Source: Nanobdellota archaeon
Lineage (GTDB): Archaea > Nanobdellota > Nanobdellia > Pacearchaeales > GW2011-AR1
DNA: 64,000 bases
Assembly (NCBI GenBank): GCA_038046005.1
Contig: JBBSXB010000005.1
Coordinates: 1-64,000 of the forward strand
Direction of reading: 5' to 3'
Shown: in pieces, positions 44,955 through 61,506 of the stretch
Numbering within the stretch: the stretch's first letter is position 1
How the letters are laid out: each line of letters starts with the position of its first letter
Position numbers and translations under genes: made by a program
Notes under the pieces: generated by a model
Database searches by the model: none
Seen by the model: only the letters and a program-made list of their open reading frames with translations
Told to the model about the DNA's origin: nothing

Positions 44955-45004
44955 GGTTTTAAATCAGTAACTTTTAAAAGGGGATTTCTGCATTATATTT
45001 TCAT

Positions 45005-45117
45005 GCTCGCATGGTCTAGCGGTTATGACTCATCCCTGTCGTGACATCTTCTTTATGAAAAAGAAAGGGGAAAATCACAGAACGGATGCGATCCGGGTTC
45101 GACTCCCGGTGCGGGCG
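45005..45117 (+). tRNA. tRNA-Asp(GTC) with a 41-nt intron at 37/38 (45042-45082)
   Basis: Acceptor GCTCGCA/TGCGGGC, anticodon stem CATCC/GGATG, T arm CCGGG-TTCGACT-CCCGG; BHB with CTGT/ACAG helix and 3-nt bulges CGT and AAC; TTTTAAAA box at 44972-44979; CCA not encoded. Confidence 0.93.
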
Positions 45118-45169
45118 TAATACATATTAGACCAATTTGGTGAGACTCTTTTCCTAACGGATATATTGT

Positions 45170-45200
45170 ATCTCGACTGTCCATATAAAATCCCGAGATC
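45170..45200. promoter_or_regulatory. Palindromic P site copy 0, overlapping the integrase TATA box
   Basis: ATCTCGACTGTCCATATAAAATCCCGAGATC, ending 11 nt before the ATG. Confidence 0.65.
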
Positions 45201-45211
45201 AAGGAAAAGAT

Positions 45212-46363
45212 ATGAAAATCGATCCATATAAGCACAAGGAAAGATACCTTAATTGGAAAGAATCAGTAAAACAGGGAATTCCGAGCATAAGCAAAGAAAA
45301 CTCGGAAATTATACTGCAATATCTAAAAGATATGGAAATTGGAGTTAATATTTCTTCAGTTAGTGTGAAAGGCTCAAGAGGATATAATAGACTAAACACT
45401 TTAAAGGACAAACTTATATTCTTCTCCAAAAAGTTTAACACAAGCTTTAATTTGGGCTGTATAATGGAGATTAAAGAGGAACAGTTATTTCAATTCTTTT
45501 CAGAGATGGATAAAGGAATCATAAAAAGACAAGATGGAAATAACTTTATGGGAGTGCACACTTATGTTAAGATATTCAAAGCGTTTTGGCATTGGTATCA
45601 GAAAATCGCCAGAAAGCAGGGAATTGAGGTAAAAGATATTACTTTAGATTTAGATACTAAAGCAAATAAGCCAAAATGGGTTTATCTTACAGAAAAACAA
45701 GTTAAACAGCTTTATGATAGGGCAGGAAGTAGATACAAAGTCCTAATAATGTTCTTATTTGACACAGGAATAAGAGCGCCAACAGAGTTGATTAATATTA
45801 GAGTTAGCGATTTATTCAATAATTGCACTGAGTTGCAAATAAGAGATGAAATAAGTAAAACATTTGGAAGAAGAATTAAATTAATGCTTTGCTCAAACAT
45901 TCTTAAAGACTATATTCAAGAAAATAATCTTAAACCAGAAGATCAGTTATTTGCAATAAACCCAACTGTAGTAAACAGATATCTCAAAAATTTAGCAGTG
46001 AAGATTTTTGGCAAAGGCATGAGTGATGCAGGTGAATTATATTCTAGATTATCAATGTATGATTTCAGGCATTGTTCATGTTGTTATTGGCTTCCAAGAT
46101 ATAAATCTGAAAGTGCCTTGAAATATAGATTTGGATGGAAAAAATCAGATAAAATACATTATTATTCAGAATTATTAGGAATGAAGGACAAAATTTCTGA
46201 AGAAGACCTTTTGATTGATATAACTAAAACAGAAATTGAGAAAAGACTGACAAAAGCTGAAAGAGAAGTTGAATTTTTAACTGAAGATAATCAGCACATG
46301 AAAAATCAGATGAAGGAAATTCTAAAATTAATCTCCAATGCTAGAGAAATTGTAGCTAATTAA
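45212..46363 (+). CDS. Tyrosine recombinase/integrase 1
   Basis: DTGIR, KT, YDFRH, FGW, HYY catalytic pattern; C-terminal coiled coil. Confidence 0.88.
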   Translation: MKIDPYKHKERYLNWKESVKQGIPSISKENSEIILQYLKDMEIGVNISSVSVKGSRGYNRLNTLKDKLIFFSKKFNTSFNLGCIMEIKEEQLFQFFSEMDKGIIKRQDGNNFMGVHTYVKIFKAFWHWYQKIARKQGIEVKDITLDLDTKANKPKWVYLTEKQVKQLYDRAGSRYKVLIMFLFDTGIRAPTELINIRVSDLFNNCTELQIRDEISKTFGRRIKLMLCSNILKDYIQENNLKPEDQLFAINPTVVNRYLKNLAVKIFGKGMSDAGELYSRLSMYDFRHCSCCYWLPRYKSESALKYRFGWKKSDKIHYYSELLGMKDKISEEDLLIDITKTEIEKRLTKAEREVEFLTEDNQHMKNQMKEILKLISNAREIVAN

Positions 46364-46367
46364 AAAC

Positions 46368-46775
46368 AGCCACTCGGCATAATAGGACTCTTTTTGGTTG
46401 GTGGCTCTTTTTGAAGTGATTATTATACAAGAAACATTCAAATTAATGGTGACTCTCTAGACCTTAGATTTTTGAAAACCTATTTTTATTAAATCCGACG
46501 ACAAAATATGAAGAGTCACTCGGCATAATAGAACTCTTTCTTGGCAGTGACTCTTTTTTGAGATAATTCCTTTATGATAAACACTCAAACTAATTGTGGC
46601 TTTTAACTCCTAAAAAAAGGCCAAAGTGCGCACCCCCAATTTTGAGTGCTACAAAATAGATTCTCGTCGGCAAAATTACATAAAAATCATCAAGAGTCAG
46701 TCGACTTAATATGTATGAATGGGGGTGGTGACTCGCTTAAAAAACGCCACCCCCTATAATGGAACTCTTTCTTTA
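46368..46775. repeat. Non-coding region with degenerate direct repeats and hairpins
   Basis: CACTCGGCATAATAG.ACTCTTT at 46371 and 46517, partial copy near 46746; stems AGCCAC/GTGGCT, GAGTCAC/GTGACTC and GGGGGTGGTG/CGCCACCCCC. Confidence 0.75.
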
Positions 46776-46806
46776 CATGAGTTGATTTTTTTATTATAAG
46801 ATCTTC

Positions 46807-49416
46807 TTACTTAATTCCAAACAAATTCTTAACAAAACTAGTAATTACAGAACTAATTGTCTTTTTTTGAGTTGTCGTAGTTGTTTGTACTGAAGTTTTA
46901 GTAGTTGTTGTAATAGCTGCTTTTGGTTGAGTTGTAGTAGTCTTAGGAGTAGTGGTTGTAGTGATTGTTTTTGGAGGTGTTGTGGTAGTTGATGTTCCAA
47001 CTTTCATCGTTACTTTTGTGTTCTTGTAGCTTGCTCCTTCTTCAAGTGTAAATTTAAGTGCAGAAGTATCAAAGCCATTTGTTCCTGGCCCTACTCTTAA
47101 ATTTACTATTGGACCTTTTCCAGTCGGAATAACTGCAGATCCGTCTAACTTATATATTCCAATTATATCTTTATTGAAAGTCACACTGAGTAAGCTTGTT
47201 CTTGGTGTTGAAGTAACTCCCAATACTTTCATCTTAGTTGTATCATATGAAATTTTGAGTCTTACTCCTGAAAGATCATCAGTATTGTCAAGATTTATTG
47301 GAACTAACTTTTCAGTATTTGTTCCTGTTGCAGTCCCGAATGAAACTGTTGAAGTTGAATATCCTGAATAAGTTCTATTATTGCAACTTAGAGGGGTGAA
47401 TGAAATGTAAAGATAATCTATCATCCTCGACAAGTCAGAAATATCAATACCTCCATCAGGTGATCCATCAACATTTCCAACAGACATTGGTGCCTTAAAT
47501 GGTGTAAATGAAATAAACATGTAATCTATCATTGCACTAAGGTCAGCGATGTCTACATTGCCACTCATGTCAAGATTGCCACATATTGTATTTGTTTTGG
47601 TTTTACAAGCACCATCCTGACAAAAAAATCCAAGAGGTTTAATAGTAGAGCAATCGGAAACTCTTGTTCCAACAGATCCATTGTTATTACAGACATACTC
47701 ATAAACCCAACCCTCATATGTTCCATCTTACACACAATAATCAGTATATGAAACACCCTGATAAGTTACAATTCCCTTCATATTATAGTTATAACCTCCA
47801 TCACTGTCAGTGCAAGTTGGTTGTTTCGTGACTTCAATCAAAGCTCCTGAATCATTCATGTCAAGAACAGATATTGACATGTTGTTGAAACTGTCAAAGT
47901 ATGTTTCGTTTTTGAATATGAGCGGCCAAGGAGATTGAAAATGCTCCGAAAAACTAGAATGTGTATTAATAAGAAATGTCCCAATATTTTCAAAATTGTT
48001 AATCTCATTCTGCCCTAATCTTATTAATAATCCATGTTTAAATCTCTCTTCAGTGGGGGGTCGGTCCAGTAAATTTTTATTACTATAATTATTATAACCC
48101 CTATATTCAACATAATAATTTGACAAAAGGTTTAAGTTGTAGTCACCGCTATGAACTGGAGTTAGATTCATAATAGAGATATTATAATTTATGGGTATTT
48201 TAATTCCATGGATTTCTGAGGGATTTATTAATTTTTTTTCTAAAGGAGTGATAAAAAATATTCCTTCCTCAACTTCTGCTATATTATTATCATTCCAACC
48301 CAAAATCTTTTTGCTAAAAACACCATAATCACCATAAAAACTAGAAAATCCCATAACATCAAAAAAATCCCCATATTCATAATAAGTATGATATTTTTCA
48401 ATCACCAAAATTTCCTTTGCGTGCATAAGACCAAAATTATGTCCAAATTCGTGAACGAGAGTATTAAAACTATTGGGATATTCATTATCATAATAGTGTT
48501 GCCAGTAGTGATTAATCCATAAAGAATAGATATTAACTATTCCCTCATTTGTTAAATAAAAATTTTTTCCAATAGCGGCCATTCCAGAATACCATTTAAA
48601 GCAATCATTAGTTGATGAGTAAACAATAATTCCATCGTATTTACTAAAGTTTGTATCTTGGTCTGATTTATTTATTGCGATATTAACGTAGTCTGAATAA
48701 TCACAATTTGAGAAGTTATCATAGATGTAAGAACCTCCAAAATCTACATGTATGTTTGCTTTCCCATAAGAAGCATCCTTTATCCAATTATTTACTAATC
48801 CGAAAGTTATGTTGGTAAAATTTTCTGCATCAAAATTATTTTTATCTGCTTCATTTAATAAATAAACAACAACATATTTCTGCTCACCCAATGTTTTTGG
48901 CCAAGGTTCAACATTCGCGGAAGCAACAGAATAACTTGTTCCTCTTAAGTTTGAGTTTGTATCAGAAAAACTTATTTTATTATCTTTTAAATAACCAGTT
49001 ACTTTTATTTTGGATTTTACAGGTAAGTGTTTATCTGTACTTAGCTCGTATCTTTTTCCATTATCATTTAGATAATAAACTTCTTTGCTTAATTGAGGTT
49101 CCTTAAAATTATCAATAATCATTAATTCAACAACTCCTTCTTTTGTTACTAACTCTCCTAAAGAATTCTGCGTCTGTGGATTAACCCTTGTCGTTGTAGT
49201 TGGTGTCGTCGGAACAGTCGCTTTGGCCGTAGCCTGTGTCGAAGGACTAGGTGTTTGGAAATTAGAAGTTTTTGCTCCAATTATATCATCGGCAAACTTC
49301 TTCACAATATTTCCAGTAGAATTATAATTGAAACCCAAAAGAACCAACTCCAACACAATAATTAATGATAAAACTAGAATTAATGTTTTGTTAAACTTCA
49401 AACCTCTTTTCTTCAT
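46807..49416 (-). pseudogene. Surface metzincin peptidase-Cys module-dockerin-cohesin protein split by one in-frame TAA
   Basis: HEFGHNFGLMH + DVMG Met-turn; the frame continues past the TAA at 47728-47730 (DGTYEGWVYEYVC...CQDGAC...CGNLDMSGNVD) into the 46807-47568 ORF. Confidence 0.8.
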
Positions 49417-49488
49417 TTAATCATAAAGCAAAAGTAGTTTAAAATAATTTGGGTTGGTAGAAAGTTTATTACCCAATCCATAAATTTC

Positions 49489-49519
49489 ATCTCGACAAGA
49501 TTTATAAAGTCGAGAGATC
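49489..49519. repeat. P site copy 1
   Basis: ATCTCGACAAGATTTATAAAGTCGAGAGATC. Confidence 0.8.
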
Positions 49520-49676
49520 AACACAAATTGTAAAAAATCAAGGGCAAAAAAGAGTCCCATGATTTTGGTCCAATGTATCTCCGATTCGGTGCGGGCGTAG
49601 ACTCCTTTTGGAATAATTAAGTGATGTACTTTTTCTAAATGCAAAAATCTATATATTTCAAGGGATAGACTTTTGT

Positions 49677-50378
49677 ATGGAAAATACTATCTGGGTAAAT
49701 CTTAAGAGAGAGCTTAAAGAAGATTTTAAATTAAGAGAGACTAAACTTCTTTGTTTTGCGACTTTCTTGGTAGTGATTCCTTGGATTCTTTCTAGCTTGT
49801 TATTTTTTGTTTCAGAAAAGGGAATATACTGGGTCAGAATTATTACTTTGGCCATATTTATAATCACTGACATCTTTTACGTTTTAAGAAAAAAGAGAAG
49901 AGATAATTTTTTTACTTCTTGGGGAGACTGGTTGACTATTCTTATTTTAGTAGCAATGTTAGTATTATACCTTGTACTAAGCTTTAAGTCTCTGGAATTT
50001 AAAATATTATCTTTATTGGCTTTTGTCTTTGTTGTGCTTGCAGTATTAGTCATAAATGGCTTTGTCCTTTTAGTAAAAAGCGAAAGATCGTTTTGGATAA
50101 TTCTTCCGTATATTGCCCTCGTTAGTGCAACAATAGTTTTTTTCGGATTTACATTTACTTTTAGCCAAATTAATTATTCTAATGGGACTTTAGTCAAAAA
50201 TGCATGGGATTATATTTACTTTAGCTCGTCTACTTTTTATGCTTCTACATATGGAGACATAATCCCAACTGGAGCGTTGAGTAAATTTTTAACCCAGATA
50301 GAAATATTTTTTAGTTTTATTATACATATTTTCTTAGTTGGTTATATCCTTTCAAAACCTAGGAAAAGTGAAAAATAA
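49677..50378 (+). CDS. Membrane protein with ion-channel pore domain (Ion_trans_2-like)
   Basis: Multiple TM segments; DYIYFSSSTFYASTYGDIIP pore-loop motif. Confidence 0.75.
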   Translation: MENTIWVNLKRELKEDFKLRETKLLCFATFLVVIPWILSSLLFFVSEKGIYWVRIITLAIFIITDIFYVLRKKRRDNFFTSWGDWLTILILVAMLVLYLVLSFKSLEFKILSLLAFVFVVLAVLVINGFVLLVKSERSFWIILPYIALVSATIVFFGFTFTFSQINYSNGTLVKNAWDYIYFSSSTFYASTYGDIIPTGALSKFLTQIEIFFSFIIHIFLVGYILSKPRKSEK

Positions 50379-50379
50379 A

Positions 50380-50607
50380 ATGAAGAAAATACTACTCTCC
50401 ATTGAAAACGCATTGGCATTCCTTTTATCAGGTCTACTTTTACAAGTTAATATTTATTTGGGAATATTGTTTTTAATCGCTGGTTTTTTAGGAACATATT
50501 ATTTAACTAAAAGTACTCCAGAAATAATATCTGGACCAGAAGGATCTTCTCCTCCAGACCCTAAAAGAGTTCCAGAAGGAAGCATCTTTGTACAGTATAA
50601 GAAATAG
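50380..50607 (+). CDS. Small two-TM hypothetical protein
   Basis: Hydrophobic N-terminal half; directly follows the channel gene. Confidence 0.55.
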   Translation: MKKILLSIENALAFLLSGLLLQVNIYLGILFLIAGFLGTYYLTKSTPEIISGPEGSSPPDPKRVPEGSIFVQYKK

Positions 50608-50632
50608 GTTACACAATCGTGATGCATAATCC

Positions 50633-50658
50633 TTAAAAAGTCCAGAGATCGCACACAA
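50633..50658. repeat. P site copy 2 (right half only)
   Basis: TTAAAAAGTCCAGAGATCGCACACAA, identical to the right half of copy 4. Confidence 0.75.
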
Positions 50659-50668
50659 CCACAACAAA

Positions 50669-51610
50669 TTATTTTTCTTTCAAATCTTTTTCTAATTGGC
50701 GGTATTCTTTTATGTAGAGATCAATTGTTGGCTTGATATTATGGTTTTTTTCATATTCCTGCAGAGATTGATAATACTCTACATTATTTTTGAGATTTAT
50801 ATTTAATGGCGGAAGATTATGTTTGATTAAAATGTTATTTAAGAGTATCCTTCCAACCCTTCCATTTCCATCAGCAAATGGGTGGATGTTTTCAAATTGA
50901 TTATGCACCACAGCGGCCAATATGAATGCGGGATATTTTGTTTTATTTTTTTCATACCATCTTATTAACTCGCTTAACAGATAGTTTATTCTTGCTTGTG
51001 GAGCTCCTTCATGGACTACTCTTCCAGATTGATCCGTAACAACAACTTCTTCGCCCTTTTTTCTAAGCTGTCCAGCAAAGTGTTTTGAATTCTTGAAGAC
51101 AATTTTATGAATATCTTTTATTAATTCTATTGAGATATGCTCTTTGGTCTTTCTGATAAATCTAATAGCTTCGTCAACTCCATATGCTTCTGCAATATCT
51201 TCTTTAGATTTGTCTGGCCATTTGTCATGTTCCAAAATGTTAGACACCTCATTTTGGTTTAATTTACTTCCTTCAATAGCGTTTGTATTATATGAGAACA
51301 ACTTAGAAAACTTTTTCCAATCTCCTTCTGATAAGTGAGAAATTTTTAAGGGTATATCAGACTCAATTCTCTTGATTGAGTTTATTTCTTCCTTGGACAG
51401 TTCAATCTTTAATGGGTCTTGGATTATTTTGTATTTGTGTATCTCCTCCAGAATAAGTTTTTCAGCAATTGAAACTCTTTCTTTTAATTTTCCTTCGCTT
51501 AAGTCAGTTCCGAGATATTTCCTGAATTTATGGACTCTTGGGCCCTCGCGATAAGAATGAGCAAGATAGTACTTTATCTTACTCCCTGCTTTTCTTTTTT
51601 CAATGTTCAT
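50669..51610 (-). CDS. Fic family protein
   Basis: HPFADGNGRVGR; inhibitory motif TNAIEG; start placed at MNIEK. Confidence 0.92.
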   Translation of the reverse strand: MNIEKRKAGSKIKYYLAHSYREGPRVHKFRKYLGTDLSEGKLKERVSIAEKLILEEIHKYKIIQDPLKIELSKEEINSIKRIESDIPLKISHLSEGDWKKFSKLFSYNTNAIEGSKLNQNEVSNILEHDKWPDKSKEDIAEAYGVDEAIRFIRKTKEHISIELIKDIHKIVFKNSKHFAGQLRKKGEEVVVTDQSGRVVHEGAPQARINYLLSELIRWYEKNKTKYPAFILAAVVHNQFENIHPFADGNGRVGRILLNNILIKHNLPPLNINLKNNVEYYQSLQEYEKNHNIKPTIDLYIKEYRQLEKDLKEK

Positions 51611-51705
51611 AAATGTACATAGGTGACTACAATATTTAAACATTTCTATTTAGGTGTCTACAAATAACAAAAAATGTAGTCACCCACTGTTATCCATATA
51701 GCCTC

Positions 51706-51834
51706 ATCTCGACAATATTTAAAAAGTCCGGAGATCGCAACACAATCGTATCGAATAGTTTAGGCCGATAATAATCAAAAGAAAAAGACCATCCACCGAA
51801 TCAACCAAGAGGGTGAGGTCTACGGTGCGGGCGT
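51706..51834. repeat. Right end of unit 2 (P site copy 3 + arm + att core)
   Basis: Highly similar to 54881-55009. Confidence 0.88.
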
Positions 51835-51967
51835 AGACTCCTTTTGGAATAATTAAGTGATGTACTTTTTCTAGATTCGAGTGAGCCGATATATTTAAAA
51901 ATGTAAGATATGATAAATGCTAAAGAGTGTGTTTAGGCGCTCGGATCAAATTCTGAGATAATTTGAA

Positions 51968-52531
51968 ATGGTAGAAGAACAACAAATTTTGACGGAAGAT
52001 AGAACTAATACCTCATCTATTGAAGTCCTAGTAGGATACAATGGTCTTTATAATTTTCAAACATGTGGAGATGACCCAAGAACTCTTAGTGAAGTGCTTT
52101 CTACAACTGGGTGGGGTAAAAGCGACTTTTATCAAGCAGGACAGATGGTTGCTGACAGAATGTATAAACTTAATGTTGTAAATCCTGTTATTAATAATGG
52201 TCAGACTTATGAAATAGTATATGACATTCCAGAAGCGGAAGCTGATGCTTTAATCAGAATGCGTGCAGATGACCCTTTCTTTAGTGGAGAGAGACCAGCA
52301 CATCACTTCGAAAAAGTAAATTGTAGAGCACTATTACCTGAGCAATTAGAAGTGTTTAGAAATGGACTTGAATATCAACTTCAGGTTTTGCAAGGTAAGG
52401 TTTCAGAAGCACCTAAAAAAGAAAATCAGAGAGATTCCCTCACCCTCTATCTTAAAACTGCGAACTATGGGAGACAAGAGATAGCCAGGATAAGAAAAAG
52501 TTTTGGAAGGGCAGACAATTCCTGTCCATAA
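51968..52531 (+). CDS. Hypothetical protein
   Basis: 187-aa ORF; no motif recognised. Confidence 0.6.
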   Translation: MVEEQQILTEDRTNTSSIEVLVGYNGLYNFQTCGDDPRTLSEVLSTTGWGKSDFYQAGQMVADRMYKLNVVNPVINNGQTYEIVYDIPEAEADALIRMRADDPFFSGERPAHHFEKVNCRALLPEQLEVFRNGLEYQLQVLQGKVSEAPKKENQRDSLTLYLKTANYGRQEIARIRKSFGRADNSCP

Positions 52532-52620
52532 CCAAGAAATAATTCTAACTAATTTATTGTATTTTATCTTATATACAGATAGATTTATATCCATGTTCTA
52601 CTTAAAGTAATTAAGCTAAA

Positions 52621-52776
52621 ATGGAAGAAATGCCTGTTATCTGTATCAAGTGTGATAAGATGTTTAATTTTCTGGAAGAACTGAGAGGTAATGCTGACAT
52701 GAATAAAGCCGTTGGAGATATCCTATTTGAAAAATATGGCTCAACAGATATAATCTGTAAAGAGTGTAGAAATTAA
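52621..52776 (+). CDS. Small Zn-binding protein (51 aa, not in ORF track)
   Basis: MEEMPVICIKC...ICKECRN with two CxxC; TATA-like box upstream. Confidence 0.6.
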   Translation: MEEMPVICIKCDKMFNFLEELRGNADMNKAVGDILFEKYGSTDIICKECRN

Positions 52777-52777
52777 T

Positions 52778-53560
52778 TTATTTTTTAGTCATAACATATA
52801 TTTTCTTTACAATATTAAACTGAATATCCTCTCCTGAATCTTTATATTTCATTTCTTTCTTTAACTTCTCTGGAAAGACTTTTCTAATGAAATCATTGAG
52901 CTTATTTAATCTTTTAATATCTCCCTTCAATTCTTGATGCAGTCTCTTATTAGAAGAAAATCTATATGTTATCTTGCGATATTCCTTTATATGAGAAAAA
53001 CCGCCTTTTTTCATGGCATCAATAAATTCATCTTCCCTAAAGAAATATCTTTCTCTTGTTAATATATTGAAGCCAGCTAATTCATCTTTCTTTCTTAACA
53101 CATCTTGAAACAATTTCTGATTCTTTTTAGATAACATTATATCCCAAACAATAAACTTCCCATTTTTCTTTAAAACTCTATTTACTTCTTTCGCTACTTC
53201 ATATTGAATCTTTTTAGAAACTTCATGAATTCCCATCTTTATAACAATCTTATCAAAAAATTCTTGGGTAAACCCCGTTTTCGGAAATTTTGTCGATATA
53301 AATCTATTTTTTGGAATCTCTGTAATATTTTTTATGGCTCTTTTTAATTGAACCTCACTTTCGTCTTCAAAATATAAATTTGCTTTCTTCTCTTTTGCAA
53401 GAATCGTTTTTCCAACAGCACCATATCCACAAAAAGCGTCTAGAATATTTTCGTTAGGTTTAGGGTTTACGGCTTTAACAAGAGCTTTAAAATCACTTGG
53501 ATTTATACTATGAATATATTCATAGGAAACAATTCTAACATCAAAACCTTCTTTTTTCAT
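52778..53560 (-). CDS. Class I SAM-dependent methyltransferase
   Basis: ILDAFCGYG, FDKI, RVLKKNG. Confidence 0.82.
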   Translation of the reverse strand: MKKEGFDVRIVSYEYIHSINPSDFKALVKAVNPKPNENILDAFCGYGAVGKTILAKEKKANLYFEDESEVQLKRAIKNITEIPKNRFISTKFPKTGFTQEFFDKIVIKMGIHEVSKKIQYEVAKEVNRVLKKNGKFIVWDIMLSKKNQKLFQDVLRKKDELAGFNILTRERYFFREDEFIDAMKKGGFSHIKEYRKITYRFSSNKRLHQELKGDIKRLNKLNDFIRKVFPEKLKKEMKYKDSGEDIQFNIVKKIYVMTKK

Positions 53561-53641
53561 GAATATTTATTATTTTATAGATTTATATATTATTTTATTT
53601 CGTAAAAACAAAAAATAACTCTCTCTTAATCCATGCATTCC

Positions 53642-53672
53642 ATCTCGACAAGATTTAAAAAGTCCAGAGATC
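53642..53672. repeat. P site copy 4
   Basis: ATCTCGACAAGATTTAAAAAGTCCAGAGATC followed by GCACACAATCGTA. Confidence 0.82.
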
Positions 53673-53701
53673 GCACACAATCGTAAGTAAATCAATTAAG
53701 G

Positions 53702-54658
53702 TTAGTATTTCTGTAAAACCTTTAAGATATAATCATAAGATTTATCTGCCTGCTCCAGCATGAATTGATAATAACCTTTTGATCTTCTATTAATTGCCTG
53801 CTCAAGAGTATTAAAGTAAGCTAGTTTATTTTCCTTATACACCACCATAGGGTAATACCCTGCGCTCATTAAAATTTTGTTCATAATTAATCTGCCTGTT
53901 CTTCCATTGCCATCTCTGAATGGATGTATATTTTCATACATTTTATGAAATTCAAATGCTAAAACTAGGGGGTGAATTTTGTTTTTGTTAGTTCTATGCC
54001 AATTTAGTAAATCATTTAGTTCTTCTTCCACTTTTTCAGGGGGTGTTGTCTGCGAGTTTCCAACAATAACCTCTTCTTTTTTAAAACCCTTAGGATAGGG
54101 AATGTTTCCGATCATCAACAAATCTTTAGTAAGTATATGATATAGCCTTTTTATTGATATTAAATTAAATTTAAATGATTTTTGTAGATATTCAAATGCT
54201 AAAATTGAATTTTTTACTTCTTTTACTTCATTCCTGTCTTTATATTTTGTGTCTCCAGTATCGATAATTTCCCTCACTCTTTCAGGAGGTATTTTTGATC
54301 CTTCGATGTTATTAGAATTAAAAATAAACTCTTCAGCAAATTCTGTATCTACGTTTTTCTCGCATTTTTTTCCCTCTAGGAGATTGCTGATTTTTATAGA
54401 TTTTAATTCTATTTTTTCAGGGAGATTTTCATTATAAGACAACTCTTTCTTAATCTGATGTAGAAATTTGGATTTGAACTTTAGCTCTTCTTCAGATAAG
54501 GTCTCTAAATTATCCAGTATGTATTTTTCTTTGCTAAATGTCAAAGAATCTGTGCCTATGTATTTCTTAAGAACTAACAATTGATTCATAAATGAGATTT
54601 TTTTGACAAAATAAATGCTAGTTTTTCCATTGATATTCTTCTTTTCTATATAACTCAT
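53702..54658 (-). CDS. Fic family protein
   Basis: HPFRDGNGRTGR; inhibitory motif SNNIEG. Confidence 0.92.
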   Translation of the reverse strand: MSYIEKKNINGKTSIYFVKKISFMNQLLVLKKYIGTDSLTFSKEKYILDNLETLSEEELKFKSKFLHQIKKELSYNENLPEKIELKSIKISNLLEGKKCEKNVDTEFAEEFIFNSNNIEGSKIPPERVREIIDTGDTKYKDRNEVKEVKNSILAFEYLQKSFKFNLISIKRLYHILTKDLLMIGNIPYPKGFKKEEVIVGNSQTTPPEKVEEELNDLLNWHRTNKNKIHPLVLAFEFHKMYENIHPFRDGNGRTGRLIMNKILMSAGYYPMVVYKENKLAYFNTLEQAINRRSKGYYQFMLEQADKSYDYILKVLQKY

Positions 54659-54880
54659 AACTTATGCACTCCTTTATCCTTTATAAACCTTACCATTTGG
54701 GCAGTATAAAAATATTATATTTCCCCTATATAATTAAAAATAGTACTATTTTGGCAGTAAAAAAGTTAAATTTATGCACCATTTTGGCAGTATAATTTTG
54801 CTATCTTCCCCTATGGTTTTATAAATGTTTATATGAGTTTTTTTAGAACCATAGATGCTTTTATATAAAATTATTCCTTC

Positions 54881-55009
54881 CTCTCGACAATATTTAAAAA
54901 TCCCAGAGATCGTACACAACTATATCGGACGGTTTTAGGCCGATAATAATCAAAAGAAAAAGACCATCCACCGAATCAACCAAGATGGTAAGGTCTACGG
55001 TGCGGGCGT
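54881..55009. repeat. Right end of unit 3 (P site copy 5 + arm + att core)
   Basis: Highly similar to 51706-51834. Confidence 0.88.
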
Positions 55010-55101
55010 TCACGTATTTTGTGAGCCTGATGTGATGGACTTTTTCTTAACGGATGATTTTCATCCGATCCCTATATAAAAAACAAGGGCTTAGAAAAAA
55101 T

Positions 55102-56268
55102 ATGAAAATAGATCCATACAAACACAAAGAAAGATACCTTAAATGGAGGGAATCTGTAAAAGAGGGCATTTCAAGGATAAATTCTTACAATTCTGATTTA
55201 ATTTTAAAATACCTTGATGATATGGAAAACGGGATGAATGTTGCTAAAGGAAATGTTAAGGGTTCTAGGAGCTATATTCGACTTAATACGCTAAGAGAGA
55301 AAATGAGGTTTTTCTCTTTAAGATTCAAGGAAAGGTATAATCTTGATAAAATAACTGATGTTTCTGAAGAACAGTTATGCGTCTTTTTTTCTGAAATGAA
55401 AAGAGGGGTTATTAAAAGAAAAGACGGGAAGTCATATATTGCTATAGCGTATTCTGTCAAGTGCTTCAAGGCTTTTTGGCATTGGTATCAGAAAATAAGC
55501 AAAAAGAGTGGAAAGGAAATTTTAGATATTACTTCAGATCTTGATACGAGAGAGGACAAGCCTAAATGGGTTTATTTGACTGAAGAGCAGGTTAAGAAAT
55601 TATGTGAAAATGCAAAGTTCAATTATCGGGTTTTAATCACTTTTCTTTTTGATACTGGAATCAGGGCTCCAACAGAGCTGATGAACATAAAAGTTTCTGA
55701 TCTTTACAATGACTGCAAAGAGCTAAACATTAGAGAGGAAATCAGCAAAACATTTGGCAGAAGAATAAAACTTATGCTTTGTTCAAATTTCCTTAAAAGT
55801 TATATTGAACAAAACGAATTAAAAAAAGAAGATTATCTTTTTCAGATAAAGCCTTATGTTGTTAATCAATATCTTAAGAGATTATCAAAAAATCTCTTTG
55901 GAGATAAGGAAAGCCCAGCAGGGCAGAGATATTCTCAATTAACAATGTATGACTTCAGGCATATCTCTTGTTGCTATTGGCTTCCAAGATACAAATCAGA
56001 GTCTGCGTTAAAATTTAGATTTGGCTGGAAAAAATCTGATAAAATTCATTATTATTCCGAAATGCTTGGAATGAGGGATACAATTTCTGATGAAGATCTT
56101 TTAGTGGACATAACAAAGACAGAAATTGAAAAGAAGCTGTTAAAATCTGAGAATGAAAAGGAAATACTAAATGAACGAGTTCAGCATCTTGAGAAGCAGA
56201 TGAATGAGATTTTGAGATTAACAAATAAGGTGGAAGAATTCAGAGTTATAAGATTAAGCGATGACTAA
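55102..56268 (+). CDS. Tyrosine recombinase/integrase 2 (paralog of integrase 1)
   Basis: Same MKIDPYKHKERY start; DTGIR, YDFRH, FGW, HYY. Confidence 0.88.
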   Translation: MKIDPYKHKERYLKWRESVKEGISRINSYNSDLILKYLDDMENGMNVAKGNVKGSRSYIRLNTLREKMRFFSLRFKERYNLDKITDVSEEQLCVFFSEMKRGVIKRKDGKSYIAIAYSVKCFKAFWHWYQKISKKSGKEILDITSDLDTREDKPKWVYLTEEQVKKLCENAKFNYRVLITFLFDTGIRAPTELMNIKVSDLYNDCKELNIREEISKTFGRRIKLMLCSNFLKSYIEQNELKKEDYLFQIKPYVVNQYLKRLSKNLFGDKESPAGQRYSQLTMYDFRHISCCYWLPRYKSESALKFRFGWKKSDKIHYYSEMLGMRDTISDEDLLVDITKTEIEKKLLKSENEKEILNERVQHLEKQMNEILRLTNKVEEFRVIRLSDD

Positions 56269-56389: not shown

Positions 56390-59137
56390 ATGAAATTAAG
56401 TGAAGCAGAAACAAGGAAAAAGTTAATTGATCCAGTTTTAGATAGAGTTGGCTGGAAAATTAATGGGGGTTATGTTAAAGAAGAGATTAACCCCGTTAAA
56501 TCTAAATTTCAACTTAAAGAATATATTGGTCGTGAAGCTGGAATAGAAAGAAATGTGGATCGATTTATAGATTATTTACTCTTAGATGAAGATAGAAGCC
56601 CTCTAGCAATAATTGAATCCAAGAAAACATCAGTTGATGTAGAAAAAGGAGAAATTCAGGCAAGAACTTATAGGGATGATGTTGAAAAACAAATTGGAGT
56701 AAAAATACCCATTTTTCTTACAAATGGAAAAACTTGGTATTATGTTGATAATTTAGACAGAAGAAGACAAATATTACTTCCATTTAATCAAAAAGATCTT
56801 CACAGAATTGTTAGTTTGATGAAAAAAAAGAAAGATCCTGCAAATGTAAAGATTAATACAAAAATAGTGGATAGAAAAAGAGGAATAGAAGCTGTGAAGA
56901 TCGTCTTGGAACATTTTTCAAAAGGATATAGAGAGGCATTAATTAATATGGCGACAGGAACAGGAAAAACAAGAGTTGCCATGGCAATAATTGAAGGATT
57001 AATAAAAGCAGAATATGTGCAGAAAATATTATTTGTTGTTGATAGAATTTCTTTAGGAAATCAAGCTAAAGAAGAAGGGTTCAAAAAATTCTTTCCAGAT
57101 AGCCCAATTTGTGAATTAAACGAAGAAGGATATTCAGATACAGCAAGATTTTATGTTTCAACTGTTCAAACACTTATGTCTTCACAAAAACCTAGAGGTA
57201 AGTTTTACGAAAAATTTGGTTCTGGAGCATTTGATTTAATTATTTTTGATGAAGCCCATAGATCTTATTATGATAGAAATAATGACATATTCAAATATTT
57301 TGATGCCTTGAAAATAGGGTTAACTGCAACTCCTTCTTCAGAAGATTCAAAAGACACTTTTGAATTATTTAATTGTGAAAAGGGGAAACCAACTGTCAAG
57401 TATGATTATTGGGACGCAGTAAATGATAAAGTTCTTGTTCCTTATGTTGCTGATATTATCGAAACCAAAGTTTTATCTCTAGGGATAGAAGGGAAAAAAT
57501 TAAGTAAAGAGTTACAACAGGCATTAAAATTACAAGAAGAAGAACCAGAAAAGTTTCAAACTCCCGGCTCTAAATTTGAAAGGCATTTTACAGATGAGAA
57601 AACTAATGAATTAATAATCAGAGAGTTTGTGGATAGATGTTATAAATCAGATGATAATAGACCTTGCAAAAGTATTTTTTTCTGTGCAAGTGTTAAACAT
57701 GCAGAAGCATTAGAAATATTATTTCAAAAATTATATCCTCTTTTAGCAAAAGATGTTAAGGTTATTACCTCAGATAAATCCCGTTACACAGATGAGGTTA
57801 AGAGATTTATAAAAAGAGACAGTCCAAGAATTGCTTTATCTGTAGGAGTATTAGACACAGGAATAGATGTCCCAGAGATAATGAACTTAGTTTTTGTTAA
57901 GCCAGTCATATCTTCAATTAGATTTTGGCAGATGTTGGGGAGAGGAACTAGAAGTATTTCTGCTTGTGAAAATAAACAATGGCTTCCAACAAATAAGGAT
58001 GGACAACATATAAAAGAAGATTTTCTAATCTTGGACTTTAAATTTGGAGATTGGTCAAATGTTCTTCAACATAAGCTAAATGTTTCAAAGCAAAGATCAT
58101 CAGGAACAGACGCAAAAACAAGAATTTTCTTGGAGCAGGTAGATACTTTAGAAAAAAACCTAAATGAGAAAGAAAAGAAAATTGTAGAAAAACAAATAAG
58201 AGACACAATTAAAGAGATTGACATTGATTCTCCTTTAGTCATGGAGAAAAGAGAAATTATTAAGAAAATTGTCTCTTCTAAGTTTGATTTGAAGGAACAT
58301 GTGAAAGAATTGAGAGAAGAAATTGCCCCTCTTTTGATTTATTCTTCATCAGAAAATGCGAAAGTATACGGATTTATTTCTAGATGTATTAAGTTATTTG
58401 ACCACATTAAAACAAATAACAAAGAAAAAATTGCTAAGATAGAAGATTTTGTTGTTAAAAGAGCTGAAGCTATTTGGGACAAAAACTTAGATACAATAAA
58501 AGAAAAAAGAGATGATCTTATAAAAATCCAGAAAGAACCTTTTTGGGAAGAGATTACATTTGAAGATGTTGATTTTTTAGTTAGAGATATTGCTCCTTTA
58601 ATGATTTTTTATGAAGAGGAAAGAAAAAATATGCTGAAGATTAATGCTCCAGACATGGTTATGAAAGTAGATAAAGAAATTATGGAAATAAAAGAAGATA
58701 AAGACTTTAAGAAATTCATTGAAAATAATATTTTAATGAAAAGGATAAAAGATGGAGAAGGAGTTAATTCTAAAGAGCTTTTAGAGATAGAAAGTAAGCT
58801 TAAACAGCTTAATCCTGCCCTTACGATAGATAATATTCAGCAAAGCAAAGATTTTGTGTTATTTTTAAGGGAGCTAATTGAAGTAAAAGGATTGCCTGAC
58901 CCTCAAGAAATGATTAGGTGGGAATTTGATAAGTTTGTTAAAGACAGAAATGAACATTATAACTCAGAACAACTTAAATTCTTAAGACTTTTAGAGCAAG
59001 TTTTTATAAGGGCTAAACATATAGAATTAAAGAATTTCGCAGAACATCCTCTTGCAGATGCTCGTCCACTTGATATTTTCACAAAAGAACAACTCGAATT
59101 AATTGTTCAAAAATGCAACAAATTGAAATGGAAATAA
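56390..59137 (+). CDS. hsdR: Type I restriction enzyme R subunit
   Basis: IDY...IIESK nuclease motif, MATGTGKT, DEAH, TATP, LDTGIDVP, QMLGRGTR. Confidence 0.92.
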   Translation: MKLSEAETRKKLIDPVLDRVGWKINGGYVKEEINPVKSKFQLKEYIGREAGIERNVDRFIDYLLLDEDRSPLAIIESKKTSVDVEKGEIQARTYRDDVEKQIGVKIPIFLTNGKTWYYVDNLDRRRQILLPFNQKDLHRIVSLMKKKKDPANVKINTKIVDRKRGIEAVKIVLEHFSKGYREALINMATGTGKTRVAMAIIEGLIKAEYVQKILFVVDRISLGNQAKEEGFKKFFPDSPICELNEEGYSDTARFYVSTVQTLMSSQKPRGKFYEKFGSGAFDLIIFDEAHRSYYDRNNDIFKYFDALKIGLTATPSSEDSKDTFELFNCEKGKPTVKYDYWDAVNDKVLVPYVADIIETKVLSLGIEGKKLSKELQQALKLQEEEPEKFQTPGSKFERHFTDEKTNELIIREFVDRCYKSDDNRPCKSIFFCASVKHAEALEILFQKLYPLLAKDVKVITSDKSRYTDEVKRFIKRDSPRIALSVGVLDTGIDVPEIMNLVFVKPVISSIRFWQMLGRGTRSISACENKQWLPTNKDGQHIKEDFLILDFKFGDWSNVLQHKLNVSKQRSSGTDAKTRIFLEQVDTLEKNLNEKEKKIVEKQIRDTIKEIDIDSPLVMEKREIIKKIVSSKFDLKEHVKELREEIAPLLIYSSSENAKVYGFISRCIKLFDHIKTNNKEKIAKIEDFVVKRAEAIWDKNLDTIKEKRDDLIKIQKEPFWEEITFEDVDFLVRDIAPLMIFYEEERKNMLKINAPDMVMKVDKEIMEIKEDKDFKKFIENNILMKRIKDGEGVNSKELLEIESKLKQLNPALTIDNIQQSKDFVLFLRELIEVKGLPDPQEMIRWEFDKFVKDRNEHYNSEQLKFLRLLEQVFIRAKHIELKNFAEHPLADARPLDIFTKEQLELIVQKCNKLKWK

Positions 59138-59451
59138 AAAAATTACTGTCAAAATATTCAAGAGAAGATATAGGCTTTGGAAAAACTGAGAATTATATTC
59201 TGGAGAGGATAAATGCAACTAAAGAAGATGTAGCAACTGATTTGCTTTCTCTCGAAAATTTAGAATTGGTGGAAGAGCAGAAAAGAAATAATGAAATAAG
59301 ATATGTGTTATTTTTCGTTTATTCAAAAAAGAGCGGAAGGGTTTATGTAATAACTTTAAGAGAAAAATTGAGGATAATCACAGCTTATCCGCTTGGCAAG
59401 AAAACACTCTCTAAATACAATAAAAGAAGATTTATAAATTCCAAGAGGTAG
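59128..59451 (+). CDS. Putative toxin (DUF4258/BrnT-like fold)
   Basis: C-terminal LRIITAYP strand; paired with a DUF2283-like gene. Confidence 0.55.
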   Translation: MEIKKLLSKYSREDIGFGKTENYILERINATKEDVATDLLSLENLELVEEQKRNNEIRYVLFFVYSKKSGRVYVITLREKLRIITAYPLGKKTLSKYNKRRFINSKR

Positions 59452-59459
59452 TAAGTATT

Positions 59460-59813
59460 ATGTATAAATTTCATTATGATGAGGAGAATGATATCTTGTC
59501 TATATACGATTCTCCTAGAAAAGTAAAGGAAAGCTTAGAAGTGTCTGAAAACATAGTTATAGATTTGGATAAAAATGACAGAATTAACGGTATAGAGATA
59601 ATGGATGCAGGCGAGTTTTTCGGCTCTTTTAATCCAGAGATAGACAAGGATCTTTTATCGGAGCTTGACTCTGCAAAGATTGAATACAAGAGCTTTAGGA
59701 GTCAATGGATGCTTTTAGTTGTTTTAAGTGCTAAGGGCAGACAGTTTTCCCAGCCAATGCCTCCTCTGAGAAAAACAGAGTTTTCAAGCCCCATATTAGC
59801 TAATAATTGGTAA
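59460..59813 (+). CDS. DUF2283-like protein (putative antitoxin)
   Basis: YDEENDILSI...IDLDKNDRINGIEIMDA. Confidence 0.75.
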   Translation: MYKFHYDEENDILSIYDSPRKVKESLEVSENIVIDLDKNDRINGIEIMDAGEFFGSFNPEIDKDLLSELDSAKIEYKSFRSQWMLLVVLSAKGRQFSQPMPPLRKTEFSSPILANNW

Positions 59814-59832
59814 AAAGGTGTATACACCTTTT
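59813..59832. promoter_or_regulatory. Perfect 20-bp palindrome (candidate operator)
   Basis: AAAAGGTGTATACACCTTTT just upstream of a TTTAAATA box. Confidence 0.6.
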
Positions 59833-59869
59833 AGGAAAGATTTAAATAGTTCTTGATTTTATTTTTCTC

Positions 59870-60049
59870 ATGGTTTTGAAAGATCACGATCTAAGTGGGG
59901 AAGAAAGGAAAATTGTTTCTACGAGACTATACAAAAGTGAATTTCTTTTTTTCAAAAAGCTTTGTGAACAAGAAGGCAAAAAAATAAATACAAAACTCCG
60001 AGAGATGATAAGGAAGGAAACAGGCGTAGAGGAGAAAAATGAGATTTGA
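59870..60049 (+). CDS. Small RHH-like DNA-binding protein (59 aa, not in ORF track)
   Basis: KIVSTRL...FKKLCEQEGKKINTKLREMIR; overlaps the next start codon. Confidence 0.55.
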   Translation: MVLKDHDLSGEERKIVSTRLYKSEFLFFKKLCEQEGKKINTKLREMIRKETGVEEKNEI

Positions 60050-60941: not shown

Positions 60942-61506
60942 ATGGTGGGCTTTAGGTATTTCAATAGTTGCCTTGTTAGGGACGCTAACTAAGGATTTTT
61001 TTATTCCTATTTTTTTTAAACCTACATTAAAAATAGAAGGAATTGATGACGGCGAGTGTATTCAGGATGCCAGTGATAATTTGAATAACATTACAAGGTG
61101 GATAAGATTAAGATTGATTAACAAAGACGGATTCTTTTCAAGGACTGCAAAAGATTGTTATGTTAAGTTATTGTGGGTTAAAAATAGTAATGGGACAAAA
61201 ATAACGCCTTTTGAATCCTTGCCTTTAACGTGGGTTAGTTATGATGATTTCTCTGGTGGAAAGTATGATCTTGCTAGAGGAGAATATCACATGATAGACT
61301 TAGTCCATGAGTTTCCTCAGCGAAGATTTCTAAGATTTAAGCTTGCAGGCATACCTCTCGAACTAATAAAAGAGTCCGAGTCTAAACTCTCGCCCGGCAT
61401 ATATTCTTTTGGGATAGCCGTTTATGGAGGCAATTTCAAACCAATTAGAAAGATATTCAAAGCAAGAATAACAAATAAATTTGGAGAATTAAATTTTGTA
61501 AAATGA
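60931..61506 (+). CDS. Membrane-anchored hypothetical protein
   Basis: N-terminal TM segment and beta-rich remainder. Confidence 0.6.
   Translation: MSVEWWALGISIVALLGTLTKDFFIPIFFKPTLKIEGIDDGECIQDASDNLNNITRWIRLRLINKDGFFSRTAKDCYVKLLWVKNSNGTKITPFESLPLTWVSYDDFSGGKYDLARGEYHMIDLVHEFPQRRFLRFKLAGIPLELIKESESKLSPGIYSFGIAVYGGNFKPIRKIFKARITNKFGELNFVK

Follow-up and report, generated by a model that had tools for sequence, protein, structure and literature searches.

The tRNA-Asp gene in the window (the whole 64,000-nt stretch of DNA analysed) is probably, at roughly 0.7, the target of site-specific integrative elements stacked in tandem at its 3′ end, among which a short repeated sequence, P, is a promoter-type module and not a recombination site. 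As far as sequence comparison can indicate, tandem site-specific accretion at the tRNA is well supported, because each unit carries its own arms, a genome of the same genus (G001) has the tRNA with no island, and the integrase family lies beside the tRNA genes of relatives; on the same grounds, the claim of an earlier sequence-only reading that whole units integrate at the tRNA holds up. Movement of any unit is suggested by the same comparisons. One family of archaeal tyrosine integrases would have integrated repeatedly at the tRNA-Asp 3′ end, each event duplicating an 11-nt core, so that every unit would be bounded by cores with one arm at each end.

The target gene and the array

The tRNA-Asp(GTC) gene is on the forward strand at 45005–45117, with exons at 45005–45041 and 45083–45117 and a 41-nt intron at 45042–45082. 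No tRNA is found at the site by ARAGORN in default mode or by an Rfam gathering search. With introns allowed, ARAGORN returns a tRNA at 45004–45118 with a 41-nt intron, miscalled as Ser; tRNA-Asp(GTC) results when the 41 nt past position 37 are taken out, and the exon borders (45041/45083) are confirmed by the intron-less G001 orthologue.

The 3′ end of this gene plus one base, CGGTGCGGGCGT, whose 12th base is outside the gene, recurs on the forward strand at 45107, 49587, 51823, and 54998. These four matches in the window, against 0.00 expected from 100 dinucleotide shuffles, confirm the reported spacings of 4480, 2236, and 3175 bp. The 11-mer core, CGGTGCGGGCG, corresponds to tRNA positions 63–73 (numbered by hand parse) in its first copy (45107–45117), and is matched exactly in copies 2 (49587–49597), 3 (51823–51833), and 4 (54998–55008), all in forward orientation. 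A fifth copy is at C11:31113–31124(-), on the contig adjoining C5; no others were found genome-wide at up to one mismatch.

The array thus runs from the tRNA through units 1 (4480 bp), 2 (2236 bp), 3 (3175 bp), 4 (~30.4 kb), and 5 (~4.2 kb). Unit 1 carries an integrase (Int1) and secreted proteins, with arms designated type A; units 2 and 3 have no integrase but keep complete ends, with type B arms; unit 4, also with type B arms, contains a second integrase (Int2), a type I restriction-modification system, and conjugation-like genes, and runs past the window to the fifth core copy, which closes it at C11:31124. Unit 5 has a distant integrase (Int3) and an eroded right end, for which no right-hand repeat was found at up to one mismatch. 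The end of C5 overlaps the start of C11(-) by 55 nt, and synteny in G001 passes from the tRNA-Asp neighborhood directly to C11:26892; together these indicate that the array is one locus of ~44.5 kb.

Each unit has its own matched, imperfect inverted-repeat arms of ~45 nt around the 11-nt core, and homology surrounding core copies 2–5 extends over ~114 nt, which the first reading had missed. The left-end arm of unit 1 (45118–45165) is the inverted-repeat partner of 49540–49586, with a pairing energy of −13.1 kcal/mol for its own right end compared to −5.3 to −10.2 kcal/mol with the left arms of other units; its type A right-end arm (49520–49586) shares 89% identity with the right end of a tRNA-Glu element on contig C8. 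Sequence comparison and folding place the left-end arms of units 2, 3, and 4 at 49598–49645, 51834–51881, and 55009–55056. Core copy 2 and the first 43 nt of the unit 2 left arm (49587–49640) are 98% identical to 51823–51876. The type B right-end arms of units 2 (51737–51822, also by junction fold) and 3 (54912–54997) were located by sequence comparison. All of these arms are given on the forward strand.

Where like arms meet, the junctions are long palindromes: att3 (51776–51881) is an imperfect one of 106 nt (−18.0 kcal/mol, z −4.2), and att4 (54951–55056) is similar (−20.2 kcal/mol, z −3.75), whereas no such palindrome forms at att2 and att5, where unlike arms are joined (z +1.07 and +0.91). 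When the ends of each element were rejoined in silico, z was −4.7 for unit 2, −3.4 for unit 3, −4.8 for unit 4, −1.9 for unit 1, and −2.0 for an element on C4. For the C8 element, the rejoined site (z +0.06) is not palindromic; this and the missing right-hand repeat of unit 5 are points against the accretion model.

At its tRNA-Asp gene, G001 has a single core and 3.3 kb of unrelated DNA without an island, and no integrase match was found in that genome. Among the 61 genomes searched (the host genome, G000, and 60 relatives), 19 have members of the integrase family. At all eight relative loci parsed, the tRNA adjoins the integrase in the same direction; the tRNAs are Asp (two), Ser, Gln, Glu, Leu, Cys, and one called Ala by ARAGORN. 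Two or more core copies are present at six of ten tRNA-anchored relative loci examined (four in G020; three in G088; two each in G021:C18, G021:C9, G039, and G374), and there are three at metagenome locus L169.

Integrases and cargo

Int1 (45212–46363, +; Pfam Phage_integrase, 9.6e-9) has the conserved residues R188, K216, Y283-x-x-R286, W309, and Y317/318, the catalytic ones being invariant in all six integrases aligned. Int2 (55099–56268, +) is 66% identical to it; a longer Int2 ORF (55054–56268) gave no Pfam match. The two are intact paralogues opening units 1 and 4, and no integrase match lies within units 2 or 3, just as originally described. The sole curated match is the XerA model, at 38–42 bits, far below its cut-off of 220. 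Units 2 and 3 are related to unit 4 but have no integrase of their own; they could be dead remnants, or elements that Int2 can move in trans.

In unit 1, Int1 is followed by four hairpin-plus-T-run repeats of ~55 nt between convergent genes (46358–46789, +), partly kept in metagenome loci L027 and L200. Next are a secreted protein (46807–47568, −) with a weak dockerin-like match below the Pfam cut-off and a 71%-identical paralogue on C6, and a candidate zinc metallopeptidase (47728–49416, −). The latter has five Pfam matches, two just above cut-off (Reprolysin_3, 23.0/22.4; Peptidase_M11, 21.3/21) and the top-scoring one (Reprolysin_5, 25.7/27) slightly under it. Unit 2 encodes a membrane protein with an Ion_trans_2 match (49677–50378, +), an 89-aa ORF with no family match (50338–50607, +), and a Fic/DOC-domain protein, Fic1 (50669–51643, −). 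Unit 3 encodes a 187-aa protein (51968–52531, +) and a 51-aa ORF with two Cys-x-x-Cys pairs (52621–52776, +), neither with a family match; a SAM-dependent methyltransferase (52778–53560, −); and Fic2 (53702–54658, −), which also has a Fic/DOC domain and shares 30% identity with Fic1. Units 1–3 showed no replication module. The unit 4 cargo inside the window (56390–64000, +) consists of the type I restriction-modification system, with HsdR (56390–59137), HsdS (61503–62594), and a putative HsdM (from 63652) named by gene order alone, along with a DUF2283 protein and unknowns.

The P module

P was first described as a ~31-bp palindromic site subdividing the units. It does exist, in six copies in the span and 12–13 genome-wide, as a ~55-bp module made up of a TATA-like box and conserved flanks, but it is palindromic in only a few: as single-stranded DNA, one of 12 genome copies folds at z < −2, and seven of 12 fold at −1 kcal/mol or weaker. 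Subdivision applies to two of the six, the internal copies at 50621–50650 (unit 2, with a variant left half) and 53643–53672 (unit 3), where type B right-end homology ends 9 and 13 nt after GAGATC, respectively. The others are at unit ends: three within the right ends of units 1 (49490–49519), 2 (51707–51736), and 3 (54882–54911), and one (45171–45200) as the P-like int1 promoter, whose TATA-like box starts 27 nt ahead of the ATG. All six are on the forward strand.

Judging by sequence, P looks like an archaeal promoter. Its conservation spans −14 to about +38 (82 non-redundant copies), ending 27–28 nt past the TATA start. Because TATA hexamer starts of leaderless genes in the host genome cluster at −30 to −27 from the ATG, the conserved block stops at the predicted transcription start. 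In unit 1, L082/L204, and L117/L200, P-type sequence also lies 27–35 nt ahead of the integrase start codon. A 22-nt P pattern matched at least 114 metagenome and 57 genome stretches, 25 of the latter labelled Woese-, Nano- or Pacearchaeota or “archaeon”. The module is probably a component of the element ends in this family. Beside the left arm it probably serves as, or precedes, the integrase promoter; the right-end P, ~90–120 bp before the core, is directed outward across the att site, and in a circle or tandem array would read into the left-end genes that come next. Over the 400 nt that follow P, the dominant ORF runs in the sense direction in 32 cases and antisense in 29, and 16 cases have none; neighboring genes such as MNT on C4 have their own TATA, there 28 nt ahead of the ATG. 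Both findings speak against P being a plain promoter.

The two internal copies are most likely the right ends of former units, in which loss of the arm-core-arm palindrome would have joined a small Fic unit with the one beside it. Internal P copies of the C4 element keep 45–75 nt of right-arm homology without a core. The order P-related copy, Fic(−), P, arm, core occurs three times in the host genome (unit 2, unit 3, and C8, where the first P-related copy is degenerate). Identity between paired P copies is 84–93% (BLAST; 67–100% to one reference copy), far above the 30% of the Fic proteins they enclose. Both internal copies stop close to the border seen for the module in general, as would be expected of a discrete functional site. 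This border, the threefold P/Fic/P order, the likeness of P relative to Fic, and the L233 contig, whose two P copies are inverted relative to each other, are points against the relic reading.

Alternatively, P could be a binding site for an architectural or accessory protein, a bent AT-rich element aiding the recombination complex and not a working promoter. This seems rather unlikely, although in the C8 element and G021 a P copy stands on either side of the core, both pointing the same way, P is oriented like the integrase in 15 of 16 loci with both (some near-duplicates), downstream ORFs show no sense bias, and hairpins or palindromes are commoner after P than before it (22/80 vs. 9/76 windows at ≤ −15 kcal/mol; Mann-Whitney p 7.5e-5). 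Against it are the variable P-to-core spacing (89–121 nt on the right side; 6 nt in L175, ~30 nt in L189, and ~90 nt in C8 on the left), related right ends in G020 without P, the block ending exactly at the expected transcription start, the placement of P-type sequence as an integrase promoter in several elements, and the integrase itself, in which family scans found no separate arm-binding domain.

Less probable still, indeed quite doubtful, is the originally proposed two-tier, integron-like system, with units entering at the tRNA and single genes swapped at P sites. P is directly oriented in all islands of the host genome and in six of seven other contigs with two P-like copies; the segments between P copies carry one or two genes each (Fic; MNT/HepT toxin-antitoxin pairs) of kinds common in integron cassettes; the conservation of P far exceeds that of the flanking genes; its internal copies stop near the module border; and genes upstream of P tend to run in its direction and end at it (45 vs. 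18). However, P has no conserved hairpin, and its half-sites would be 12–13 bp apart, compared to the 6–8 bp used by tyrosine recombinases. No attC-type R boxes were found at P or the cores, R″..R′ pairs being at chance level (2 observed, 2.1 expected) and none of them at either. Replacement of the left half of P in three of 12 copies, beside a constant TATA box, and the variable distance to the core also count against exchange at P, as do Fic genes in both orientations relative to it and the L133 Fic1 orthologue, which directly follows an att arm, in opposite orientation to P and with no P behind it. Nor are the integrases IntI: Int1 and Int2 score 19.9 and 20.9 bits against an integron-integrase model with a cut-off of 265. 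Neither single-gene exchange at P nor the integron analogy is supported by these results.

That the repeats are segmental duplications or metagenome assembly errors and not integration scars is highly improbable: the array does span a contig break in a 15-contig assembly, and units 2 and 3 are nearly identical over the 54 nt noted above, but the units hold unrelated genes with common stretches of just 12–114 nt, the same architecture is found at other tRNAs here and in other genomes, G001 synteny independently backs the C5–C11 join, and six runs from two studies, possibly the source data, contain 99–100% of sampled words of the 10-kb stretch.

Comparison with known systems

Units flanked by att sites but lacking a recombinase are reportedly covered by the CIME concept from Streptococcus ICEs. 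The tRNA-Asp array resembles such tRNA-gene accretion in its successive insertions into a single tRNA 3′ end, the tRNA-end direct repeat between units, the integrase beside the tRNA, the presence of units that lack an integrase but keep both ends, and the erosion of older units. It differs in its Woesearchaeota-type host, with a genome of 0.87 Mb, in the 11-nt core between long inverted-repeat arms, and in the promoter-type module at the ends. Archaeal integrases that stay intact on integration are labelled the pNOB8 type. By layout, the array is like this type in that the integrase is whole when integrated and a tRNA-derived repeat bounds the element; one account contrasts intact archaeal integrases with “suicidal” SSV-type ones (PMC7253208). 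A 2021 review mentions archaeal mobile elements integrated in tandem; a word search of it found no occurrence of DPANN, Woesearchaeota, or Nanoarchaeota (PMC8371274).

Archaeal integrons have been reported (10.1101/2022.02.06.479319). Integrons, bacterial and archaeal, share with the array a tyrosine recombinase adjoining a growing array of small gene units, repeated sites bounding the units, and toxin-antitoxin-type cargo. The array differs from integrons in having no IntI-type integrase, attC sites, or attI/Pc layout; its genes are in both orientations with their own promoters, and what recurs at its junctions is a duplicated tRNA end with arms specific to each element. Similar in layout are the Prochlorococcus tycheposons, as outlined in 10.1101/2020.12.28.424599: tRNA-targeting tyrosine-recombinase elements, with a partial tRNA copy alone between neighbors, that grow by successive integration and leave integrase fragments and partial tRNAs as remnants, although those are bacterial, and units 1–3 here lack any replication module seen. 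Not an integron, the array appears to represent a known kind of island growth, here in a tiny-genome archaeon of a little-studied lineage.

The tRNA-Asp gene, its integrases and the stacked units

The core sequence CGGTGCGGGCGT, for which 0 occurrences are expected by chance, is found at 45107, 49587, 51823 and 54998, always on the forward strand, so that the number of copies in the window and their spacings (4480, 2236, and 3175 bp) are just as the sequence-only reading had them. Copy 1 is the end of a tRNA gene (45004-45118), which was called neither by ARAGORN in default mode nor by an Rfam search at the gathering threshold, because of an intron. With introns allowed, ARAGORN reports a tRNA with a 41-nt intron, named Ser; removal of 41 nt after position 37 yields a tRNA-Asp(GTC). 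The exon borders (45041/45083) are set by an intron-less but otherwise 98–100% identical counterpart in a genome of the same genus (G001); the extra segment (45042-45082) is a case of intron gain or loss within the genus. By a hand parse, the repeated 11-mer covers the final three bases of the T-stem, then the 3′ acceptor strand and the discriminator base, with the twelfth base of CGGTGCGGGCGT falling outside the gene. The tRNA 3′ end is directly repeated at both borders, as it is at tRNA-Glu and tRNA-Gly in the same genome.

The genome (874,611 bp in 15 contigs, 33% G+C) has a fifth core copy on a second contig, C11 (31113-31124, reverse strand), and the end of the contig under study, C5, overlaps the start of C11, read in reverse, by 55 nt. 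In G001, a seryl-tRNA synthetase gene (named in the flank from its translation), an RNA-binding-protein gene, and tRNA-Asp are followed by the equivalent of C11:26892 downward, with only 3.3 kb of unrelated DNA between the tRNA and that point. From the overlap and the synteny, the island therefore comprises C5:45119-83731 and C11:32787-26893, ~44.5 kb or ~5% of the genome. The sequence-only reading had proposed that the locus be compared across related genomes: at this site G001 has the tRNA and a single core, no integrase match, and no island, with synteny resuming past the array.

The fourth unit, thought to be open, does exist but is closed at ~30.4 kb by the core on C11. It encodes an integrase (Int2) and a type I restriction-modification system, along with a DNA methylase, a type IV secretion pilin-like protein, and an ATPase of the PrgI/TraG type. 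The latter two lie past the window (L068:2548-6403, part of C5), the ATPase having 1013 aa with PrgI and TraG P-loop matches; together they form a conjugation-like module in a small-genome archaeon. Unit 5, after the fifth core, has a further integrase (Int3), then a MazE/PIN pair and a pirin; neither a sixth core repeat nor a degenerate core was found at its right end. Genes lie on both strands inside the units. In unit 1, four ~55-nt repeats, each a hairpin plus T-run, separate int1 from the next gene (46358-46789), with parts 72–78% identical to sequence near integrases in two other loci (L027 and L200); they could be terminators, small RNAs, or iterons. The gene that follows (46807-47568), for a dockerin-like secreted protein, has on contig C6 a paralogue at 71% identity, and ORFs on C7 and C6 have the same N-terminus as the unit 1 peptidase.

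Int1 (unit 1) and Int2 are paralogous, as had been noted (66% identical), and Int3 is 30% identical to Int1. All are whole ORFs beginning 50–100 nt past a core, and are tyrosine recombinases by their Phage_integrase matches (4.4e-9 for Int3). Residues R188, K216, Y283, R286, W309, and Y317/318, invariant in all six aligned family members, are presumably the catalytic Arg, Lys, His/Tyr-x-x-Arg, His/Trp, and Tyr of these enzymes. The best curated match for Int1 and Int2, the XerA model, falls far short (38–42 bits against a cut-off of 220), and no solved structure matches Int1 at E 0.01 or better. The family is large, comprising 2369 protein clusters (E 1e-20 or better), none of them named more closely than “integrase”, and is present in 19 of 61 genomes searched (this one and 60 relatives). 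In all eight relative loci parsed, a tRNA adjoins the integrase in the same direction: Asp (twice), Ser, Gln, Glu, Leu, Cys, and one called Ala by ARAGORN. In the present genome, N-terminal integrase fragments lie beside tRNA-Gly (on contig C4) and tRNA-Glu (C8), and another integrase is near tRNA-His. The C4 and C8 elements have right ends of the same layout, with cores matching their own tRNA instead: the family retargets to many tRNAs through change of the 11-nt core.

Short N-terminal integrase fragments (32–136 aa) beside tRNAs are found at C4:1449-1709 and C8:88131-88268, and also in G018, G019, G030, G032, G035, and G036; the simplest reading of their persistence is that decay is unable to proceed into the adjoining tRNA gene. 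The C4 element also encodes a 521-aa protein (L070:1732-3297) matching Sigma70 region 2 (4.3e-7) and region 4 (8.7e-8), bacterial matches that are odd for an archaeal element.

Such arrays are common. Four core copies in G020 define units of 5413, 1267, and 9535 bp; there are three copies each in G088 and in metagenome locus L169, and two each in G021 (on both C18 and C9), G039, and G374. These multi-core loci have the signature of site-specific integrations that came one after another and then decayed. In L175 and L189 two cores are only 79–81 nt apart, right after the tRNA, making “empty” units with little besides two arms.

Attachment-site arms and units without an integrase

Around copies 2–5, similarity extends well past 12 nt. 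An arm of ~45 nt precedes the core, of one type (A) at copy 2 and another (B) at copies 3, 4, and 5, the arm on C11 being the same as at copies 3 and 4; the downstream arm is an imperfect reverse complement of the same unit's upstream arm. Where type B meets type B, at the third and fourth sites, the result is a 106-nt palindrome (-18.0 and -20.2 kcal/mol, z -4.2 and -3.75); where unlike arms meet, at the second and fifth, there is none (z +1.07 and +0.91). Sites were also rejoined by script, each unit's own right arm being set before the core and its own left arm, and then folded. The z-scores are -4.7 for unit 2, -3.4 for unit 3, -4.8 for unit 4, and -1.9 for unit 1, with -2.0 for the C4 tRNA-Gly element and +0.06 for the C8 tRNA-Glu element. 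Each unit is an element with its own ends.

In units 2 and 3 both arms are found and, as the sequence-only reading had it, no integrase match; in this respect they are integrase-less, att-flanked (CIME-like) elements. Their cores plus the first 43 nt of left arm (54 nt in all) are 98% identical, and they share type B arms with unit 4. It may be that the units are mobile, and that units 2 and 3 would be mobilized in trans by the integrase of a neighbor. No circular form of any element was recognized among the contigs examined.

The P site

The second repeated site, P (TCTCGAC-N-GAGATC, with a TATA-like box), had been described as a ~31-bp palindrome subdividing the units at gene boundaries. Six copies are indeed present in the span, but only two of the six are internal, and the palindrome is not conserved: with 12 copies folded as single-stranded DNA there is no conserved hairpin, z being below -2 in just one and the energy -1 kcal/mol or weaker in seven. 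Three copies have the left half replaced, keeping the TATA box and right half. The copies at 49490, 51707, and 54882 lie 97–116 nt before a core and are parts of unit right ends; the TATA-like box of the one at 45171 is 27 nt before the int1 start codon; and those at 50621 and 53643 are internal and lie immediately beyond the 3′ ends of Fic genes (Fic1 in unit 2, Fic2 in unit 3). The full motif occurs six times in the genome (five on C5, one on C8), and relaxed copies bring the total to 12–13, all in tRNA-linked islands and all oriented as the integrase. Three 34-nt direct repeats (54692-54811) lie between the Fic2 start and the right-end P.

A search of 401 genomes with the 18-mer TTAAAAAGTCCAGAGATC from the right half of P, allowing up to two mismatches, found matches in 44, nearly all of those outside the present genome being inside conserved coding sequence; among 29 loci viewed, only L038 (G088) and L059 (G374) resemble true right ends. 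Later searches used a 22-nt pattern, the left half plus TATA box, which is found in at least 114 metagenome stretches and 57 genome stretches, 25 of the latter labeled Woese-, Nano-, or Pacearchaeota or “archaeon”. Six stretches of viral contigs match it, of which five contain one and the same repeated sequence, apparently coding; the remaining one is unrelated. None has the P flank consensus, and neither integrase nor Fic matches were found in them. The P-like sites and integrase of a contig filed under a Methanosarcinales MAG, and of a near-duplicate filed under Saccharibacteria (L233, also L206/L207), probably reflect binning errors; the two P copies in L233 are inverted.

Among the matches listed, a filter for “true” P kept 107 of 179, dropping at least three that look genuine (L117, L200, and L233); this filtered set underlies the counts of conservation, neighboring ORFs, integrase and Fic neighbors, and palindromes. 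The 82 non-redundant copies among the matches listed are conserved from -14 to about +38 relative to TCTCGAC, beyond which similarity vanishes. The TATA box begins at +11, and the conserved block ends 27–28 nt after its start. In the genome as a whole, the starts of TATA-like hexamers cluster at -30 to -27 relative to the start codons of long ORFs (251, vs. a background of ~6–29 per 2-nt bin further upstream), and most genes therefore look leaderless; with this layout, the conserved block ends at the predicted transcription start. In L082/L204 and L117/L200, too, the start codon of the integrase follows P-type sequence, at a distance of 33–35 nt.

P is not a general promoter of this genome, all six full motifs being within tRNA-linked islands (C5 and C8), and an ordinary mRNA promoter cannot be the whole story either, since downstream ORFs have no sense bias: among the matches listed, 32 are sense and 29 antisense, with none present in 16 cases; upstream, the ORF runs with P in 45 cases and against it in 18. 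Genes near P have their own TATA boxes, some ~28 nt before the ATG. What P does track, among the matches listed, is element polarity (the integrase runs in its direction at 15 of 16 loci, and contigs with two copies have them in direct orientation in six of seven), and palindromes are commoner after it than before (22 of 80 vs. 9 of 76 windows, p 7.5e-5). The best reading is that P would be a promoter-type module but not an ordinary gene promoter; transcription would proceed from it.

In the C4 island, the two internal copies of P have no core but still show 45–75 nt of terminal-arm homology, as an eroded boundary between units would. The homology in units 2 and 3 ends 9 and 13 nt past GAGATC, and C8 has, behind a third Fic gene (Fic3), the left half of P alone. 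A small Fic unit may once have stood behind another unit, the unstable arm-core-arm palindrome between them having been deleted. Counting against such a deletion, the internal P/Fic arrangement recurs three times in this genome, and the two C5 breakpoints fall near where the P module generally ends; recombination at P therefore may lie behind these copies instead. The sequence-only reading had single genes exchanged at P, which found no support: in L133 the orthologue of Fic1 (70% nucleotide identity) is the first gene of a unit, immediately behind an att arm; it is turned the other way relative to P, and no P follows it. Fic genes adjoin P in 16 of 100 loci among the matches listed, in both orientations. 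Fic1 (start 51610), Fic2 (start 54658), and the C4 nucleotidyltransferase MNT (L070:5674) have in common a ~40-aa N-terminal stretch rich in Lys, Gly, and Tyr, for which no Pfam match was found; similar starts appear after P in L094, L135, L161, and L224.

Implications and comparison with known systems

Such archaea, whose genomes are very small, are probably host-dependent, and to our knowledge there is little in print on how they gain genes. Here a single tRNA-anchored stack makes up ~5% of an 875-kb genome, with restriction-modification, Fic, toxin-antitoxin, and conjugation-like cargo. The att layout (a short core with long inverted arms) and the ~55-bp P site offer concrete means of detecting these elements in metagenomes and setting their limits, as well as starting points for bench tests of archaeal integration. 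The integrase-less units have one to three genes (Fic, MNT/HepT, methyltransferase, or channel) between complete palindromic att ends. That they are live mini-elements moved in trans by resident integrases, and the tRNA arrays an integron-analogous gene-capture platform in Woesearchaeota-type archaea, is a speculative reading, with perhaps one chance in five of being right. If it is, entry would be at the tRNA 3′ end, the ~100-bp palindromic att would act as cassette site, and P would serve as a control module or portable promoter.

The closer analogy to integrons drawn from sequence alone fails in every feature tested. The integron integrase model TIGR02249 scores 19.9 bits for Int1 and 20.9 for Int2 against a cut-off of 265, with no match for Int3. 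The imperfect attC hairpins with R″/R′ boxes (RYYYAAC…GTTRRRY) at cassette ends are lacking: two R-box pairs were found vs. 2.1 expected, both from one locus inside a gene read on both strands, and none at P or at any core. Integron cassettes are mostly promoterless and co-oriented, under one Pc beside intI/attI, whereas here genes are on both strands and some have their own TATA box. One account (10.1101/2022.02.06.479319), in its accessible part, reports attC-bearing integrons from archaea. SSV-type integrases, which have attP inside the gene and are split upon integration, differ as well: Int1, Int2, and Int3 are whole.

In its features the locus instead agrees with a tRNA-targeting integrative island. 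That archaeal elements integrate in tandem, and that elements so placed exchange modules, is known from the accessible text of a 2021 review of archaeal tyrosine recombinases (PMC8371274), and successive tRNA integration, with partial tRNA copies and integrase fragments as remnants, from that of a study of tycheposons (10.1101/2020.12.28.424599). Neither that review, so far as its accessible text goes, nor the literature searched, in which journals and supplements are incompletely covered, describes such elements in these archaea. The lineage, the layout of the att sites, and the P module, with its wide occurrence, seem to be new.
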